Shown: piece by piece, positions 1,440-48,905 of the stretch | How positions within the stretch are numbered: position 1 is the stretch's first letter | Layout: each line of letters starts with the position of its first letter | Source: an uncultured virus (IMG/VR IMGVR_UViG_3300017773_000003) | Lineage: Duplodnaviria > Heunggongvirae > Uroviricota > Caudoviricetes | DNA: 64,000 nucleotides | Virus record (IMG/VR): IMGVR_UViG_3300017773_000003 | Reading direction: 5' to 3' (one strand) | Translations under genes and position numbers: made by a program | The notes under the pieces: model-generated | What the model was told of the DNA's origin: nothing | Database searches by the model: none | Seen by the model: only the letters and a program-made list of their open reading frames with translations

Positions 1440-3767
1440 ATGGCTAATAAATATAGTAAGTTTGAATTAAAACCGTTTGCGAGTCAATACGTTGATCCGG
1501 GGGCAGTTAAGGTTTCAGAAATTTATAGAGAAAGATTTGAGAAGAATAAAGAAAAGAAAGATCTGATAGACCAGGCGTTAGCGCAATTTAATGTAATGGG
1601 TGGAGACTCTCATCATTTAGACGCACAAAAAGCTCAAGTTAAAGAGCAGCTTCAAGGAATAGTAGCAGGTGGTAATTATGAAGACGCTAATCTTGTTATT
1701 GATGAAGCACTAAATAATATAAAAAGTAACGAGGCTTTATTAGCTGCAGAAAAATCTTATGCAAACAGGCAAGAAGAGCTGCAATTTATGCGTAAAGCTG
1801 CAATGCAAGGGCAGCAAATTTTAGATTGGGGAGAAAATGCTTCTAAATCACACAACTCTTGGGTTAAAAACGAGACTACTGGAAAATTTGAAGCAAACAT
1901 ATACCAGAATTCTTCAGAAGTTATGCTTGATTATAACAAAGGTATAAAAAGCTTTTTAGGTTCTATTAAGTCGGATCCTACTGGATTATCTAAGTCTAAA
2001 ATGGATAAGCACGCTTTACGCATTATGGGCGGATATATGAGAAGTAATGAAGGTGTGCAAGATTACAGAAGATTGGTGGAGCTAGAATATGATCAAAGTT
2101 TACCTTTAGAGCAGCGGCAAGAAATGGCACAAAAAGATATTTTAAATAGAATTAAAATACAAACGGACCAATACGTGCACACTAAAGTGCCTACAGGATC
2201 TGAAAAAGCACAAGCTGCTGCAAATGCATTGCAATCTAGTATTTTAGGTAACAGTATGATAGTATCGTCTAAAGGTATGACAGCTATTGATATTGCAGAT
2301 ATTGCAGATAAAGGGGTTTTTGATGGTAATATGTTAGCTCTTACATCTAAAATGATTGAGTTTGAGAAAGCAGGCGATAAAAAAGCTGCTAGAGATATAC
2401 GACAATCTATGAAAAGTATGGGACGTAATATGGTGGAAAGTGGCGCCCTTACCCCTGAGCAAGGAACTGCGTATCAAAAATTTGAAATAGATCATTGGAG
2501 AATAAATGATGGCGATAATTCAAACATGTCTACTGATGATTTAGAAAAAGTAGGAGGTCTTGTTAAGTATATGACTGAAGATAGATGGCTTCCTGATTTT
2601 ACACTACAAGGCGGAGGTAGAGATAGAATGTTTGATAGAATAGGTAATTATTATTCAGGAGTTGGAGCAACTACACTAGCGGGTGCGGGAGCAGGAACAA
2701 TCGTAGCGCCTGGAGCAGGAACTCTTTTTGGTGGTGCTCTTGGATTTGGAGCAGGACTTATAGCTGCTACTACAGCTACTATAGGGGATATAGGTGCTAC
2801 AATGTTAGGACAAGCTCTTGATGGTTGGGGTAATGTAAAAGATATGGGTCGACCTGAGAATGTAGATTTAGGTATTATTGATTCTGAGCGTACACAGCTA
2901 GCGCAAAATATGGCTAACTTAACTAAAGTGAATAATGCATTGGGCACACAATTTACTGAAGAAGATATACCGTTTTTAAAGAAAAAAGCTCTAGAATATT
3001 ATGATTACACTGTAAGTGGTGGAGAAGAAATCCATGACGCAGTTAACAATTATGACGGAGATGTATATGAAGGTAATACTTGGATACCTAGCCCAGACAA
3101 AGAAGGAGACAACCTAAGAACTCGTCTTAATAATATGTTACAAAAAAGTATGACATTAGACGATTTTAGACCTGTAGGTATTAGTGAGGGTAGTGAAGCA
3201 TATGACAAGTTATTTAAAACATCAGACGGAGCTAAAATAAAAACTACTAACTTAGAAATGCACGGAGTTATATTTCCCGATATATCAAACAATATACCTT
3301 TACAAATGATTGTTGAAACTGCAAGCGGCGATAGAGTTAGGGTTGAGATGAAAGACCAAACTGCTAGAGGGTTAGACTCGACAACTGGTCAAATAGCTAA
3401 AGCTATGGGAAGACTTGATGTACTTATAGCAGAAGAAACTAGAAAAGATTTAGAAAATGTAGATAACCCAATGCTACCAGATCTTGCTATTTCTACTAAA
3501 AATCAATTGCAAAGTTTAATGAATGATATGGGAAGTCTAGGTGGTGACCCTGAAGAGATTTATAAGACAGTTATGTATAACCACATAAAAACCATACCTT
3601 TGGCTATGTCTAAAATTAATAAACTTAAATCAGGTTTAGTTAATGCAGGCTACGCACCTGAACTTATTGCAAAAGCTATTGAGCAGTATGTATTTGAAGG
3701 TACTTATAATTCTGAAGGTGTTAAAACTGCAGAGCCATTAATTGCAACTAAAATCAGACTTAGGTAA
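1440..3767 (+). CDS. Virion cargo/ejection protein with glycine-zipper hydrophobic segments
   Basis: 775 aa ORF with a helical N-terminus and a GxxxG-rich hydrophobic stretch (GVGATTLAGAGAGTIVAPGAGTLFGGALGFGAGLIAA). Its stop overlaps the next start (TAATG). Confidence 0.6.
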   Translation: MANKYSKFELKPFASQYVDPGAVKVSEIYRERFEKNKEKKDLIDQALAQFNVMGGDSHHLDAQKAQVKEQLQGIVAGGNYEDANLVIDEALNNIKSNEALLAAEKSYANRQEELQFMRKAAMQGQQILDWGENASKSHNSWVKNETTGKFEANIYQNSSEVMLDYNKGIKSFLGSIKSDPTGLSKSKMDKHALRIMGGYMRSNEGVQDYRRLVELEYDQSLPLEQRQEMAQKDILNRIKIQTDQYVHTKVPTGSEKAQAAANALQSSILGNSMIVSSKGMTAIDIADIADKGVFDGNMLALTSKMIEFEKAGDKKAARDIRQSMKSMGRNMVESGALTPEQGTAYQKFEIDHWRINDGDNSNMSTDDLEKVGGLVKYMTEDRWLPDFTLQGGGRDRMFDRIGNYYSGVGATTLAGAGAGTIVAPGAGTLFGGALGFGAGLIAATTATIGDIGATMLGQALDGWGNVKDMGRPENVDLGIIDSERTQLAQNMANLTKVNNALGTQFTEEDIPFLKKKALEYYDYTVSGGEEIHDAVNNYDGDVYEGNTWIPSPDKEGDNLRTRLNNMLQKSMTLDDFRPVGISEGSEAYDKLFKTSDGAKIKTTNLEMHGVIFPDISNNIPLQMIVETASGDRVRVEMKDQTARGLDSTTGQIAKAMGRLDVLIAEETRKDLENVDNPMLPDLAISTKNQLQSLMNDMGSLGGDPEEIYKTVMYNHIKTIPLAMSKINKLKSGLVNAGYAPELIAKAIEQYVFEGTYNSEGVKTAEPLIATKIRLR

Positions 3768-43648: not shown

Positions 43649-43927
43649 CTACATTTCTTTGCGGGCTTTGGCGATAGCCATGTCCGCCTTACGGGCTGCG
43701 GCAGCAGACATGTAAGGAAGTAATACATCGTATTGCTTTGTGTTATCCTTGGATGGCACACTTTCCCAACCTACGACGGAGTCTGGTTGGTACATATCCA
43801 AATCAAACGTAAGTGTAGAGTGGATTTTGCGCGAACCTTCGTGCTTAAACTTAATGGGTTGCATAGTCTTCCCATTGATTGTTGTGTGCTGTCCAACAGC
43901 CACAACATAAACTAAATCTTCATTCAT
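43649..43927 (-). CDS. First gene of the leftward early block, hypothetical (start moved to ATG 43927)
   Basis: MNEDLVYVVAVGQ... preceded by an AT-rich leader. Confidence 0.65.
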   Translation of the reverse strand: MNEDLVYVVAVGQHTTINGKTMQPIKFKHEGSRKIHSTLTFDLDMYQPDSVVGWESVPSKDNTKQYDVLLPYMSAAAARKADMAIAKARKEM

Positions 43928-44078
43928 GAAATTTATATTTAACTTTGTTAATACTAGAGGGGGGTACCTCATCGCCAGAGAACAATGGGGGTCGTCGTTT
44001 GAGTTGGTTGGTACACTCGAAGATAAAACAAATTTTAAAAAATTTTACCCAGAATTTTTTCCGTAAGCTTTAATTAAG

Positions 44079-44086
44079 TACATTTG
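44079..44086 (+). promoter_or_regulatory. Bacteroidota -7 element TACATTTG (near-leaderless transcript)
   Basis: TAnnTTTG 4 nt before ATG 44091. Confidence 0.6.
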
Positions 44087-44090
44087 CTCC

Positions 44091-44252
44091 ATGTCTGAAA
44101 AAACCTGCAAGAATTGTATCGATGGTCAATGCACCTGTAAAAGTAAGAAGGATTATAACGCCTTCGAAGATTATATAAAAGACCTTACAGAGTCTGACCA
44201 ACCCGCTTGTTCTATAGAAGATCAAGAAAACTGCGAGAATTGCGGTAGTTAG
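44091..44252 (+). CDS. Small Cys-rich protein (53 aa), not in ORF track
   Basis: MSEKTCKNCIDGQCTCKSKKDYNAFEDYIKDLTESDQPACSIEDQENCENCGS, with a promoter immediately upstream. Confidence 0.75.
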   Translation: MSEKTCKNCIDGQCTCKSKKDYNAFEDYIKDLTESDQPACSIEDQENCENCGS

Positions 44253-44254
44253 AT

Positions 44255-44518
44255 TAGAAGCACTCATAGAGTATCACCCCCCAGGTAGCCAATAAGGGGT
44301 CAGAAGTTGGATTGTAGGTTCAAATAGAACTAGAGTTTTCTCCAATAGCTTCGAAAAGAGTAACGTATAGGCTTTAGTTAGGATAAATTGCACACAGGTA
44401 AGTGCGGTGAATTAACATCAGTATTATTATCCTTGGGTCCCCATCGGGAGCACTGCTAAACGCTAAAATCACACTTGAAATCTAAAATCCAAGGGGGATA
44501 CCTGTGTCTTTTTGGATC
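44255..44518 (+). ncRNA. Candidate structured ncRNA (~265 nt)
   Basis: No sizeable ORF. Several stems with G-U pairs on the + strand and a 9 nt loop-loop complementarity (see findings). Confidence 0.55.
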
Positions 44519-44533
44519 TCTTTAAATAAAATC

Positions 44534-44564
44534 TTGTATTGTAGCAGAAACTTTTATATATTTG
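44534..44564 (+). promoter_or_regulatory. Bacteroidota promoter (TTG -33, TATATTTG -7)
   Basis: TTG at 44534-44536, a 20 nt spacer, then TATATTTG at 44557-44564, upstream of groES. Confidence 0.75.
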
Positions 44565-44588
44565 TGGAAACATAAAACTATATACAAG

Positions 44589-44855
44589 ATGAAATTCAAA
44601 CCAAATAGTAATTGGGTGGTTCTACCCGATCCAACTTCAGACACTACTGAATCCGGTATAATCTTAGACGAGACTACAAAGAGAGCTCAAGCTAGAAGTA
44701 ATGTACTTAAAGTTTTAGCTGTTGGCGATCACTGTCACTTTGTTAAGCCTGGGGATATTGCTACAATCGATCCTAGAAGCGAAGCTATACAATTAACTAT
44801 AGAAGGAAAAGAGTGCTTACTAATTAGTGAGTCTCAAATTATAGGTAAAGAATGA
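44589..44855 (+). CDS. groES: GroES-like co-chaperonin (start moved to ATG 44589)
   Basis: MKFKP...WVV, TTESGIIL (mobile loop), VLAVG, VKPGD and IEGKECLLISESQIIG. Confidence 0.85.
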   Translation: MKFKPNSNWVVLPDPTSDTTESGIILDETTKRAQARSNVLKVLAVGDHCHFVKPGDIATIDPRSEAIQLTIEGKECLLISESQIIGKE

Positions 44856-45037
44856 TTACTAGTAGCGTAATTGTAGACACCCCTGAAGAATGGGTCAGAA
44901 CTGTTTTAAATTTTGAAGAAAAAATTAGCGACCTTGAAGCTATAGGCTCAGTTAAACATTGGGACACTACCTTATGGGTTTGTGAAGACGGATTTAAAGT
45001 TAGTATTGAAGTCGAAATGGATGAAGACTATGAGTAA
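44852..45037 (+). CDS. Small acidic hypothetical protein
   Basis: 61 aa, ATGA overlap with groES. Confidence 0.55.
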   Translation: MITSSVIVDTPEEWVRTVLNFEEKISDLEAIGSVKHWDTTLWVCEDGFKVSIEVEMDEDYE

Positions 45038-45380
45038 TAAAAAAAGAATTACAGTTAAAATAGATACCACATATAAATATATCAGATTGTGGAACGGTCT
45101 ATTTAATTTAACTCCTAAAGAATTAAAAATTTTAGCAGAGTTTGTGGATGTCAATAGAGATATTGGTAATAAATTTGATAACGCATGCCATGTAGAAATT
45201 AAAAAGATAGTAGCTAAAAATTTAGGTATTACAGATTATAATACTCTTAATAATTATGTTAAACGTTTTAAGAAAAAAGGAGTTATATTAAAAAAGAAAA
45301 CTTCGTACTCTTTAAATAAACTTTTAGACCCTGAAACAGCTAGTGTAGAAATAGTAATAAAATATGGAGATAACAGGTGA
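45030..45380 (+). CDS. Putative winged-helix DNA-binding protein (start moved to ATG 45030)
   Basis: LTPKELKILAEF...IVAKNLGITDYNTLNNYVKRFKKKGVI resembles a wHTH. Confidence 0.65.
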   Translation: MSNKKRITVKIDTTYKYIRLWNGLFNLTPKELKILAEFVDVNRDIGNKFDNACHVEIKKIVAKNLGITDYNTLNNYVKRFKKKGVILKKKTSYSLNKLLDPETASVEIVIKYGDNR

Positions 45381-46666: not shown

Positions 46667-46927
46667 ATGGATTTTTTAGAAGATATAGAACAATATAATA
46701 CCGCAATGGATAATGCTTATGACTTTGTAACTGGAAAAGTAACTTTAGATTCACTTGTAACTGATTTATCAGTTTCAGGCATACATTCTTATGTGTTACC
46801 GTTTGATCCTGAAAAAGAAACAGGTAGAGAGCATGATACTTTAGATTTGTTAATTGAGCATTTTGAAAGTACAGAAGAGTACGAAAAATGTCAAATATTA
46901 TTAAGGATAAAAAAGAAGAGTGCTTAA
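46667..46927 (+). CDS. Small protein with UVR-like C-terminal motif
   Basis: LIEHFESTEEYEKCQILL. Confidence 0.6.
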   Translation: MDFLEDIEQYNTAMDNAYDFVTGKVTLDSLVTDLSVSGIHSYVLPFDPEKETGREHDTLDLLIEHFESTEEYEKCQILLRIKKKSA

Positions 46928-48905
46928 ATTTAAAAACATAAATAGAATTAGACCTGCAGCCGTACACTTTGAAAAGTACGGCTTTTATACTAGCGCCCTA
47001 CCAGGTACTCGTGAGTATTATACTTATTGGGATGGAGAAAAAGAGCGTTGCTTGTATGGTTATACTGCTGATGAGGGCACCGAAGATGCCCTTTACGTCA
47101 CTGGGTTCCACTATTTTTATTTAAACTATTGCCCAATTGATAGAGCAGTAGATGAAGTTATGCCTGATGGATCTGTCCAGTCTAAACGTGAAAGAACATT
47201 CCCTTCATTTTATGATGGAGATCACGATTACTTTACACAAATAGATGCGGCTAGAGCTAGTAACCGTCATATGGTCGTGCTTAAAGCTCGTCGTAAAGGG
47301 TACTCATACAAAGCTGGGTCTATGTTAGCTCGGAATTATTTCTTTGTAAAAAACTCCAAAAACTTTGTATTTGCAGGACAAAAAGAATACCTTATTGGTG
47401 ATGGGCTCTTATCTAAAGCTTGGGAGTTCTTATCTTTTATAGATGACAACACTGCATGGGCTCAGCCTCGTCTAAGAGACAGAGAGATGAGTAAAATGTC
47501 AGGATATAAGAAAAAAATTAATGGTATTGAGATAGAGTTAGGTATGAAATCCCAAATTATGGGTGTATCTCTAAAAGACAACCCCGACAAGGTGAGGGGA
47601 AAGGCCGGTGAACTTGTATTCTTTGAGGAAGCCGGTTCCTTTCCCGGATTACTAAAAGCTTGGGAGGTAACAATGCCTACAATGCGTCAAGGTGCTAAAA
47701 CATTAGGGCTTATGATTGCATTTGGTACAGGTGGTACAGAAGGTGCAGACTTTGAAGCTATGGAAGAAATATTTTATAACCCTGCAGCATATGACTGTAT
47801 GGATTATACTAATGTTTGGGATGAAGGATCTATGGGTACTAAATGTGGGTATTTCGTTCCTATATATAAAAACTTAGATGGGTTTATTGATAAAAATGGA
47901 AACTCATTAAGAGAAAAAGCAGTTTCTCATGAAGAAAGTATGAGAGATAAAAAGAAAGGAGCTGCCGATGCTAAGTCTTTAGATCAATATATAGCAGAAC
48001 ACCCTTTTTCTCCTCAAGAAGCTACATTACAAGTAACTGCAAATCTATTTGATGTAGCAACTTTACAAGAGCAATATAACTATGTGAAATCTAGGGGATT
48101 ACATTCTTTAGGTACACTAGGTAAATTGTATCACGACGCTAAAGGTAAAGTAAAGTTTAAGATGGATGGAGATTTAAAACAAATCTTACGGTATCCTCAC
48201 AGGCGAGAAGATGATAACACTGGGGGAGTAGTTATATATGAATCTCCGTATAAAAATACTAAACAGCAGGTTCCTATGAACATGTATGTTATTTGTCATG
48301 ACCCGTACGGCCAAAATCAATCTGCTGATAGCACATCTTTAGGTGCAGCGTATGTAATTAAACGTCCAAACAATATTTCTAGTCCGGACGATATGATTGT
48401 AGCTAGCTATGTAGGCCGTCCTAACACATCTGATGATTACAATAGAACATTATTTATGTTAGCTGATTATTATGGGTGTAAGATAGGATTTGAAAATGAT
48501 CGAGGAGAAGTTATTGCTTTTGCTAAACGATATAGAAAGCTGCATAAACTTCAAGAAGAGTTTGAGATGCTAGACAAAAAAGAGTTAAGAAGTAAGACTG
48601 TTAAACGTCAGTATGGTATGCATATGACGGAACAAAGAAAAAGACAAGGAGAAATATATATTAGAGACTGGTTAATGACCCCAAGGGGATCTGATGAAGA
48701 TGGGAATAAAACATTAAATTTACACAAAATTTATGATTTAGCATTTTTACAAGAATTAATTAAGTTTAATCATCACGGTAACTTTGATAGAGTTATGGCG
48801 TTTATGATAGGTATGTACCACACTAGAGAGCTTTATAATGCAGAAGTAAAAGATATTTTAGAGGATAGATCCGCAGATGCGTGGTTTGACGCTAACTACT
48901 ATTAA
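46920..48905 (+). CDS. terL: Terminase large subunit
   Basis: LKARRKGYS (Walker A), FFEEAG (Walker B), FGTGG, nuclease ICHDPY and C-terminal GNFDRVMA. Confidence 0.95.
   Translation: MLKFKNINRIRPAAVHFEKYGFYTSALPGTREYYTYWDGEKERCLYGYTADEGTEDALYVTGFHYFYLNYCPIDRAVDEVMPDGSVQSKRERTFPSFYDGDHDYFTQIDAARASNRHMVVLKARRKGYSYKAGSMLARNYFFVKNSKNFVFAGQKEYLIGDGLLSKAWEFLSFIDDNTAWAQPRLRDREMSKMSGYKKKINGIEIELGMKSQIMGVSLKDNPDKVRGKAGELVFFEEAGSFPGLLKAWEVTMPTMRQGAKTLGLMIAFGTGGTEGADFEAMEEIFYNPAAYDCMDYTNVWDEGSMGTKCGYFVPIYKNLDGFIDKNGNSLREKAVSHEESMRDKKKGAADAKSLDQYIAEHPFSPQEATLQVTANLFDVATLQEQYNYVKSRGLHSLGTLGKLYHDAKGKVKFKMDGDLKQILRYPHRREDDNTGGVVIYESPYKNTKQQVPMNMYVICHDPYGQNQSADSTSLGAAYVIKRPNNISSPDDMIVASYVGRPNTSDDYNRTLFMLADYYGCKIGFENDRGEVIAFAKRYRKLHKLQEEFEMLDKKELRSKTVKRQYGMHMTEQRKRQGEIYIRDWLMTPRGSDEDGNKTLNLHKIYDLAFLQELIKFNHHGNFDRVMAFMIGMYHTRELYNAEVKDILEDRSADAWFDANYY

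Follow-up and report, generated by a model that had tools for sequence, protein, structure and literature searches.

Several phage-encoded RNAs invite comparison with the one described here. The packaging RNA (pRNA) of phage phi29, about 120-174 nt long, is a structured RNA with multi-way junctions and interlocking loops. The put RNAs of HK022, of about 70 nt, and the lambda PR' 6S transcript are short RNAs heading long phage operons, located directly after the promoter and followed by a hairpin. GOLLD and ROOL, both present in Rfam, are ornate orphan RNAs associated with phages or prophages and show strong covariation. Here we analysed a 64,000-nt stretch of DNA from an uncultured virus of the Caudoviricetes (IMG/VR record IMGVR_UViG_3300017773_000003), referred to as the window, in which positions 44257-44517 of the plus strand almost certainly encode a real, conserved structured RNA, judged by comparison with related sequences. 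It lies ahead of a GroES-like gene, and the best explanation of the locus is a gene for a noncoding RNA (ncRNA) of about 260 nt, present once per genome in marine crAss-like phages of one clade, about 85 kb in size.

Like pRNA, this RNA is phage-encoded and structured with multi-way junctions, and two complementary segments in the window recall the interlocking loops of pRNA; it differs in its length of about 260 nt, in matching no Rfam family, in belonging to another phage lineage and in that the complementarity is not conserved. With the put RNAs and the lambda 6S transcript it shares its place, directly behind the promoter that heads a long operon, and a subsequent hairpin, but it is a much larger RNA in which 11 helices combine with many invariant unpaired bases, and the genes downstream mostly have a promoter of their own. 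GOLLD and ROOL, more than twice its size, resemble it as ornate orphan RNAs with strong covariation, whereas the RNA studied here has no Rfam match and occurs in Bacteroidota phages in seawater. We regard it as a new class among a known kind, the orphan structured phage RNAs.

The nearest precedent, as far as the available passages of the preprint tell, is the pair of abundant long ncRNAs of Cellulophaga phage phi14:2, a marine crAss-like phage with a flavobacterial host, which map to the intergenic regions g004-g006 and were left unexplained (bioRxiv 10.1101/2020.03.07.982082). These RNAs are likewise noncoding, intergenic and encoded by a marine crAss-like phage; they differ in that they lie in the early region and not at the head of a GroES/terminase block, and the same passages mention no conserved structure. 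The covariance model of our RNA, R1, introduced below, found nothing in the whole phi14:2 record and gave at most 8.1 bits with filters off in its first 9 kb. The preprint passages also state that the host polymerase transcribes phi14:2's middle and late genes, which fits the host-type promoter described below for the marine crAss-like RNA.

A conserved structured RNA upstream of a GroES-like gene

The RNA lies in a 337-nt gap (44253-44589) between a Cys-rich open reading frame (ORF) of 53 aa and the GroES-like gene. With the GroES-like protein as query we obtained 66 loci from IMG/VR viral contigs, and the gap was matched by blastn in 60 of them; among the six misses five have no upstream DNA, and one, L062, has 3 kb upstream yet no match. 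The matched core comprises about 225 nt (window 44272-44498) and shows 71-80% nucleotide identity in loci whose GroES proteins are only 38-64% identical. Its distance to the GroES gene ranges from 74 to 1747 nt, which argues that the RNA is a discrete module.

From a start set of 41 distinct segments we removed three, L001 as a near-copy of the window and L007 and L039 for their cut 5' ends; the remaining 38 sequences were aligned with MAFFT only (alignment A1). RNAalifold predicted 46 pairs on A1, 17 of them with compensatory changes, and this fold was revised by eye and with a scan for mutual information with average product correction (MI-APC), giving 55 pairs in 11 helices. The covariance model R1 built from the revised fold has 54 base pairs and 261 model positions. 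R1 matched 99 of 100 sources with 145-313 bits and one copy each, the one without a match being L062. In the window, which belonged to the seed alignment, the single match at 44257-44517 on the plus strand scored 243.9 bits (E 4.2e-64). The 99 sequences fitted to R1 make up alignment A2.

In A2, 96.6% of the 5296 cells in the 54 pairs are canonical, shuffles giving 85.5% and none of 500 an equally high value, and double, that is compensatory, changes occur in 37 of the 54 pairs, with 665 such cells compared with 183 in shuffles. Sliding the register left 32-52% of cells paired and 8-13 pairs with double changes. A1 gave 97.0% paired cells (shuffles 89.4%, 0 of 500 as high), double changes in 27 of 55 pairs and 32-50% pairing after register slides. 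When all column pairs of A2 were ranked by MI-APC without bias, the top 7 all lay inside the model, and no extra pseudoknot was prominent. The per-pair tables are unambiguous despite the relatedness of the sequences; one pair of helix H5, for instance, is CG in 43, GC in 34, AU in 14 and GU in 8 sequences. The pairs of the family comprise 593 G-U cells versus 42 A-C cells, and canonical pairing amounts to 96.6% when read on the plus strand and to 86.2% on the minus strand, so that the G-U pairs place the RNA on the plus strand. No reading frame is conserved (depending on the frame, the longest stop-free run drops to a minimum of 12-21 aa within the family), and the variability along the RNA shows no marked three-base periodicity.

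A search of Rfam 15, whose 4227 models cover riboswitches, ribozymes, introns, tmRNA, RNase P, 6S and phage pRNA among others, yielded no match in the whole window at the gathering score, in 43900-44900 at E<=10 or in 15 divergent members at E<=1, and ARAGORN found no tRNA or tmRNA. The original prediction, made from the letters of the window alone, had proposed an uncharacterised ncRNA or switch of about 265 nt on the plus strand. The covariation now found among homologs upstream of groES, the G-U asymmetry, the absence of an Rfam match and the lack of a conserved ORF bear out the proposal of an ncRNA, whose boundaries agree with ours within a few bases. The minimum-energy fold of the 337-nt gap is no better than that of shuffles (z -0.75 on the plus and -0.79 on the minus strand), a test that is uninformative rather than negative; the evidence beyond chance is comparative, and a single sequence would be insufficient for the claim. 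On these comparative grounds we consider existence, strand, boundaries and fold of the RNA well supported. No description of it was found in the full-text literature, including a search for four short motif strings, with subscription journals and supplements outside the scope.

Architecture of the fold

The fold consists of two multi-helix domains. In the 5' domain H1 encloses H2 and H3; in the 3' domain a long-range helix closes H4, which in turn holds a three-way junction of H5, H6 and H7 together with H8. In the window the elements are as follows.

44257-44517, plus strand: structured RNA, match to R1 with 54 base pairs, covariation in both A1 and A2
44257-44261 / 44348-44352, plus strand: H1, GAAGC/GCUUC, closes the 5' domain
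44276-44280 / 44296-44300, plus strand: hairpin H2, ACCCC/GGGGU, 15-nt loop with conserved GGUA.CC and an A-rich run
44306-44311 / 44341-44346, plus strand: outer part of H3, GUUGGA/UCCAAU, 99.7% paired, double changes in 4 of 6 pairs
44317-44321 / 44327-44331, plus strand: inner hairpin of H3, G-GUUC AAAUA GAAC-U, 98.7% paired, double changes in 5 of 5 pairs
44358-44361 / 44473-44476, plus strand: long-range helix, GAGU/ACUU, closes the 3' domain, 100% paired in A1
44373-44378 / 44455-44460, plus strand: H4, UUUAGU/GCUAAA, 91.3% paired, double changes in 6 of 7 pairs
44380-44386 / 44427-44433, plus strand: H5, AGGAUAA/UUAUCCU, encloses H6 and H7
44390-44393 / 44402-44405, plus strand: H6, GCAC/GUGC, loop ACAGGUAA
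44406-44409 / 44416-44419, plus strand: H7, GGUG/CAUC, loop AAUUAA
44436-44442 / 44446-44454, plus strand: hairpin H8, GGUCCCC-AUC-GGG.G.ACU, loop length varies

H1 shows no variation within the clade of the window, where R1 mis-aligned the 5' strand and the partner was read from the sequence; in other clades GCAAC/GUUGC, CCAAU/AUUGG and GUAAC/GUUAC covary, with double changes in all five pairs. H2 has compensatory changes in 4 of 5 pairs and 94.3% paired cells, one pair being UA in 68, CG in 27 and GC in 2 sequences. Pairs of H3 are among the top MI-APC pairs, and this helix holds the conserved internal loops UUGUAG and UAGAGUUUUC. In A2 one pair of the long-range helix is GC in 59 and AU in 32 sequences, and H5, H6 and H7 are 99.7-100% paired, with one H7 pair split into GC 47, GU 41 and AU 11. 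The outermost pair of H4 is weak (unpaired in 42 of 99), and H8 has double changes in 3 of 7 pairs and 96.1% paired cells. A single covarying pair (GC 70, AU 21, GU 6, CG 2) lies within the conserved internal loop GUAUAA/GAAAUC. Unpaired bases that are invariant, namely GGAUUGUAG, UUUUCUCC, GUAUAA, ACAGGUA, GAAUUAAC and GAGCACUG, indicate tertiary structure or a specific binding partner.

Several helices named from the window alone recur in the relatives: ACCCC/GGGGU is H2, GUUC/GAAC (44318-44321/44327-44330) belongs to the inner hairpin of H3, AGGAUAA/UUAUCCU is H5 and UCCC/GGGA forms part of H8. The proposed AUUGCAC/GUGCGGU holds in its GCAC/GUGC portion, which is H6, while its AUU/GGU extension clashes with the covarying H7. 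GAAGUU/AGCUUC was mis-registered (32.5% of cells paired): in the family GUUGGA pairs with UCCAAU in H3, and GCUUC with GAAGC in H1. An alternative CCUUGG/CCAAGG pairing was no more frequent than in shuffles (81.6% in both).

A long-range closing helix CCCCC/GGGGG suggested by RNAalifold competes with the covarying H2, lacks covariation itself and was left out of the model. The invariant hexaloop AAUUAA of H7 (44410-44415) contains the self-complementary runs AAUU and UUAA, and a kissing contact between two copies of the RNA through this loop is conceivable from the letters. Similarly, the invariant unpaired UUUUC of the H3 internal loop (44336-44340) is complementary to two conserved GAAA(U) blocks of the family, in the window AAAAU at 44465-44469 and GAAAU at 44477-44481; UUUUC and both blocks are invariant in the collected sequences and could form a tertiary pairing between the two domains.

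Distribution

A degenerate string of 25 letters from the core was used as a probe with exact matching. It matched at least 120 viral contigs and had no match in 185,579 bacterial and archaeal species (one genome each). Among the 120 probe-found loci listed, GroES lies downstream on the same strand in 88 within a flank of about 295 nt; the other 32 show no GroES in this flank, and in none is GroES arranged otherwise. The five most divergent members all carry GroES 65-968 nt downstream on the same strand. Genes upstream of the RNA are not conserved across relatives. Two near-complete genomes that were searched (85,958 and 84,511 bp) hold one copy of the RNA each.

Outside this clade, R1 had no match in the crAss-like phages Fpv2 and cr60_1 nor in crAss001 or phi14:2, and its best E-value in the Azobacteroides phage was 0.155; with filters off, other crAss-like phages gave at most 11.8 bits, which is noise only. 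Blastn of the region against 50,697 records of cultured phages found no match. In L062, which has a GroES gene (3001-3258) of 46% identity, neither blastn nor R1 found the RNA within 3 kb upstream; either the RNA has been lost or its version is too divergent for detection.

We also noted that the interval between RNA and GroES is a hotspot of inserted accessory genes (L050 391-2016, L015 1041-2078, L053 751-2338, L045 1915-2905, L052 857-1312, L024 651-1493). They encode Laminin_G_3 (ConA-like lectin) proteins, an Lcl_C-domain protein, Peptidase_M15_3 and several proteins without a family, and the first of the inserted genes usually lacks its own promoter box.

Promoters

The -7 box recognised by the primary sigma factor of Bacteroidota is given as TAnnTTTG at -12 to -5 in passages of a study of Flavobacterium psychrophilum (PMC9723704), and the same consensus is quoted in a passage of PMC7366714. 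In 73 of the 99 members such a box has its end exactly 5 nt ahead of H1's first base, and in 2 members 6 nt ahead of it. Another 13 members, from clades in which H1 was mis-aligned by the model, have a box nearby with GARGC 4-6 nt after it, and in 2 members the box is 22 nt away with an inserted hairpin between. Overall the box was found within 22 nt of H1 in 88 of 99 members, at a background rate of 0.001 per nt. The position 5 nt before H1 makes the predicted start the first paired base of the RNA. No exact box is present in 11 members, among them the window, L001, L121 (TAGATTAG) and five with TA..TTTA. Since the plain box occurs 101 times in the window, a box in a single sequence means little and only its fixed position across the family counts; TTATANNTTTG has 3 matches in the window versus 2.86 expected. 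A scan for sigma-70 promoters and terminators gave nothing useful, the tool not covering other promoter types.

44079-44086, plus strand: TAcaTTTG, Bacteroidota sigma-A-type -7 box upstream of the small ORF, motif match only
44557-44564, plus strand: GroES promoter box TATATTTG between the RNA and the GroES start codon, read from the sequence

In the window the RNA begins 5 nt after the stop codon of the small ORF and probably rides on the transcript of this ORF, for which the box at 44079-44086 is the likely source; from this box a leaderless mRNA would start at the A of the ATG of the small ORF (44091). Transcription from a promoter at 44079, as suggested in the original prediction, is therefore plausible for the window itself, while most relatives instead have a promoter of their own at the 5' end of the RNA. 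The GroES promoter has the layout TTTGG, about 19 nt, TTTA-TATnTTTG, about 20-25 nt, ATG, and its box is present in all 27 distinct RNA-to-GroES spacers examined. The marks of an independent small RNA gene, an own sigma-A-type promoter and a 3' hairpin before the next unit, were found in the family; the window itself has only the degenerate box.

The 3' end and the G-run

44488-44516, plus strand: terminal hairpin, arms UCCAAGGGG / CUUUUUGGA, candidate 3' end or terminator

The tail of the RNA contains the near-invariant AAGGGGGA (44491-44498), which lies in the terminal hairpin. This hairpin, proposed earlier from the window, does exist there; across relatives only the 5' one of its two arms (CAAGGGGG) is conserved, and folding predicts a comparable hairpin for 46 of the 93 distinct relatives. 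Its occurrence goes along with the downstream context. In 63 of the 93 distinct contexts a promoter box follows within 110 nt of the G-run, and for 41 of these 63 folding predicts that the G-run pairs with a pyrimidine-rich arm downstream; in the 30 contexts without a box an ORF starts soon after the RNA, and the hairpin is found in 5 (Fisher p 1.6e-5, not corrected for relatedness).

The G-run may pair either with a pyrimidine run just upstream or with the downstream arm. Pairing with CCCYY of H2 reaches 90.7% versus 88.5% in shuffles and lacks covariation. A helix enclosing AAGGGGG, formed by the upstream pyrimidine run and the bases after the G-run, had an inconsistent register across sequences and was discarded.

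Traces in RNA libraries

Each of 14 DNA runs labelled as viral, seawater or marine metagenome contains at least half of the sampled words of 43900-45100. In six metatranscriptome runs the fraction of these words is 0.11-0.24, about the share of the RNA in the stretch. The expression data themselves come from four RNA runs of four studies, all of them Logan contigs of low depth. One study contains a 174-nt contig identical to 44276-44449, a second a 165-nt contig over 44292-44456 with one mismatch, and a third three short contigs from related variants, whose overhangs correspond to the family consensus; the fourth has a 545-nt contig over GroES with about 93% identity. None of the four runs covers 43900-44268, and the uncovered parts of 43900-45100 are not evidence of silence. 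The contigs inside the RNA are a weak hint of expression in seawater.

Locus and neighbouring genes

44091-44252, plus strand: Cys-rich ORF of 53 aa directly upstream of the RNA, ending ...CENCGS, with a CxxC...CxNCGS pattern
44589-44855, plus strand: GroES-like co-chaperonin gene, Pfam Cpn10 6e-5, phrog_3188 2e-13, the conserved downstream neighbour
46920-48905: large terminase, phrog_6681, 1.8e-134

The terminase gene lies about 2.4 kb downstream of the RNA locus, and its product is about 40% identical to the terminases of gut crAss-like phages. The layout of the window is crAss-like as well, with a leftward block at 22.5-44.0 kb and a rightward block that begins at the RNA and includes ORFs of 2142, 2432 and 1658 aa. 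The RNA is located at the single divergence point of the window, at the head of the rightward (late) block.

The 53-aa ORF has no match in Pfam or PHROG and is restricted to the clade of the window and some divergent clades. ORFs sharing its C-terminal ...C.NCGS* stop right before the promoter of the RNA in the clade of the window and several divergent clades. A second conserved noncoding block is located upstream of the RNA (window 43988-44047) and is present 80-100 nt 5' of it in 49 of 70 distinct related sequences. It consists of GGGGU(C/G), about 14 variable nt, ..ACACGYUCACAAA.., and then an A-run and a T-run, and it is situated between the RNA promoter and the first leftward gene (ORF 43649-43972, minus strand, in the window), in the 5' region of that gene. 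On neither strand did RNAalifold give a consensus structure for this conserved stretch, which may act as an early promoter or control region for the leftward block. The gut phage cr60_1 (L188 490-590) has a look-alike, gggg...cccctccctaaattttt, at the equivalent divergence point.

Possible functions of the RNA

We favour, with a probability of roughly 0.45, a discrete stable RNA that acts through its fold in trans. Host RNA polymerase carrying the Bacteroidota primary sigma factor would start the RNA at the first base of H1, to judge from the position of the motif, and in most relatives the RNA would end at the G-rich hairpin that immediately precedes the GroES-like gene's separate promoter. 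The product would thus be discrete and end-protected and not simply a GroES leader. In the weakest step of this scheme, the RNA would bind a protein or a small ligand in trans via its folded shape and not by antisense pairing. The reading is favoured because the RNA has a promoter of its own with the start placed in a helix, because in most relatives a hairpin directly precedes the next promoter, and because the RNA-library contigs are confined to the RNA.

A number of points weigh against it. Nearly a third of the contexts (30 of 93) have no following promoter and an ORF (Laminin_G_3, Lcl_C, Peptidase_M15_3 and others) soon after, so that the RNA would be a 5' leader there. The strict co-orientation with GroES, in at least 88 probe loci and in five of the five divergent members, also fits a role in cis. 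The terminal hairpin is missing in about half of the relatives and mostly comes without a clear U-tract, and the RNA of the window has no canonical box but the degenerate TAGATTAG at 44250-44257. The library contigs show no ends, strand or level, and RNA libraries may contain DNA. Finally, as the sequences are related, shuffle counts and the Fisher p are not true probabilities.

The main rival, somewhat less probable, is a cis-acting 5' leader of the late module (GroES, terminase, portal, capsid). The leader would be an antiterminator or a switch, made first from the promoter that heads the rightward block: in the manner of put-like processive antitermination, the folded RNA might alter the host polymerase that is transcribing, or it might sense a ligand or protein like a riboswitch or attenuator, and in either variant it would decide whether transcription passes through the terminal hairpin into the late genes. 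This would account for the constant position of the RNA, which heads the conserved GroES...TerL block and shares its orientation, and for the predicted start at the first helix of the RNA. In the 30 contexts with promoter-less genes directly behind the RNA, only 5 of them with the hairpin, read-through from the promoter of the RNA must occur, and the alternative partners of the invariant G-run (the upstream pyrimidine run, the downstream arm and CCCYY of H2) are what a switch might use. However, a strong GroES promoter follows right after the RNA in about two thirds of the contexts and would make a gate on read-through largely redundant; the alternative pairings all lack covariation; the put RNAs, to which the RNA corresponds by position only (promoter directly before it, head of the rightward block), are far smaller and simpler; and the RNA-library contigs lie inside the RNA with none bridging to GroES, a weak argument.

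A more specific proposal, which we regard as unlikely, is a new kind of phage-encoded regulator that targets the RNA polymerase of Bacteroidota hosts, namely a large folded RNA produced first, at the head of the late block. Binding either the very polymerase by which it was transcribed or, in trans, the polymerase pool, it would render its target terminator-resistant or re-targeted, whereby the late region of about 60 kb would be expressed. Such an RNA would be analogous to put RNA in function, its architecture being unrelated and far more elaborate.

An oligomerising RNA of the phi29 pRNA type, forming a loop-loop ring with the packaging motor or prohead, was raised as speculation in the original prediction on account of a 9-nt complementarity between ACACAGGUA (44392-44400) and UACCUGUGU (44499-44507). 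The complementarity is exact in the window, the large terminase gene is close by, and the H7 loop offers a conceivable site for homodimer kissing. The pairing is not conserved, however: across the 99 relatives it amounts to 67.4% versus 67.2% in shuffles (124 of 500 as high), with one pair being CG in 22, UA in 22 and unpaired in 52. Most relatives have CUAUAU opposite ACACAG, which leaves two C-A mismatches, and the match is perfect only in the window and a few scattered relatives. Two bases of the segment are also part of the GCAC stem, and no loop-loop pair is among the top 60 MI-APC pairs. With no pRNA among the Rfam matches, of which there were none, and a phage lineage that is crAss-like and not phi29-like, we consider the analogy highly improbable.

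Least credible of all is a DNA-level element at the early/late divergence (packaging site, replication origin or protein-binding region), which would fit the single divergence point and the adjoining conserved noncoding block, but sites in double-stranded DNA do not keep base pairing by compensatory changes, the one-strand tolerance of G-U pairs would be unexpected, and a conserved promoter box lies directly upstream of a region that RNA-library contigs cover.

Significance

Phages of the crAss-like group rank with the most abundant Bacteroidota viruses of gut and sea, and their gene regulation is poorly known. The RNA family described here is abundant enough in seawater metatranscriptomes for its ends to be mapped from public reads, and alignment and model provide a structure that can be used for probing, ligand screens, pull-downs and cryo-EM. 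Being single-copy, about 260 nt long, built of 11 helices and better conserved than the neighbouring proteins, and having a host-type promoter of its own at the early/late switch point, it is a strong candidate for a new functional RNA class in these phages, be it a regulator, a protein sponge or a ligand sensor.

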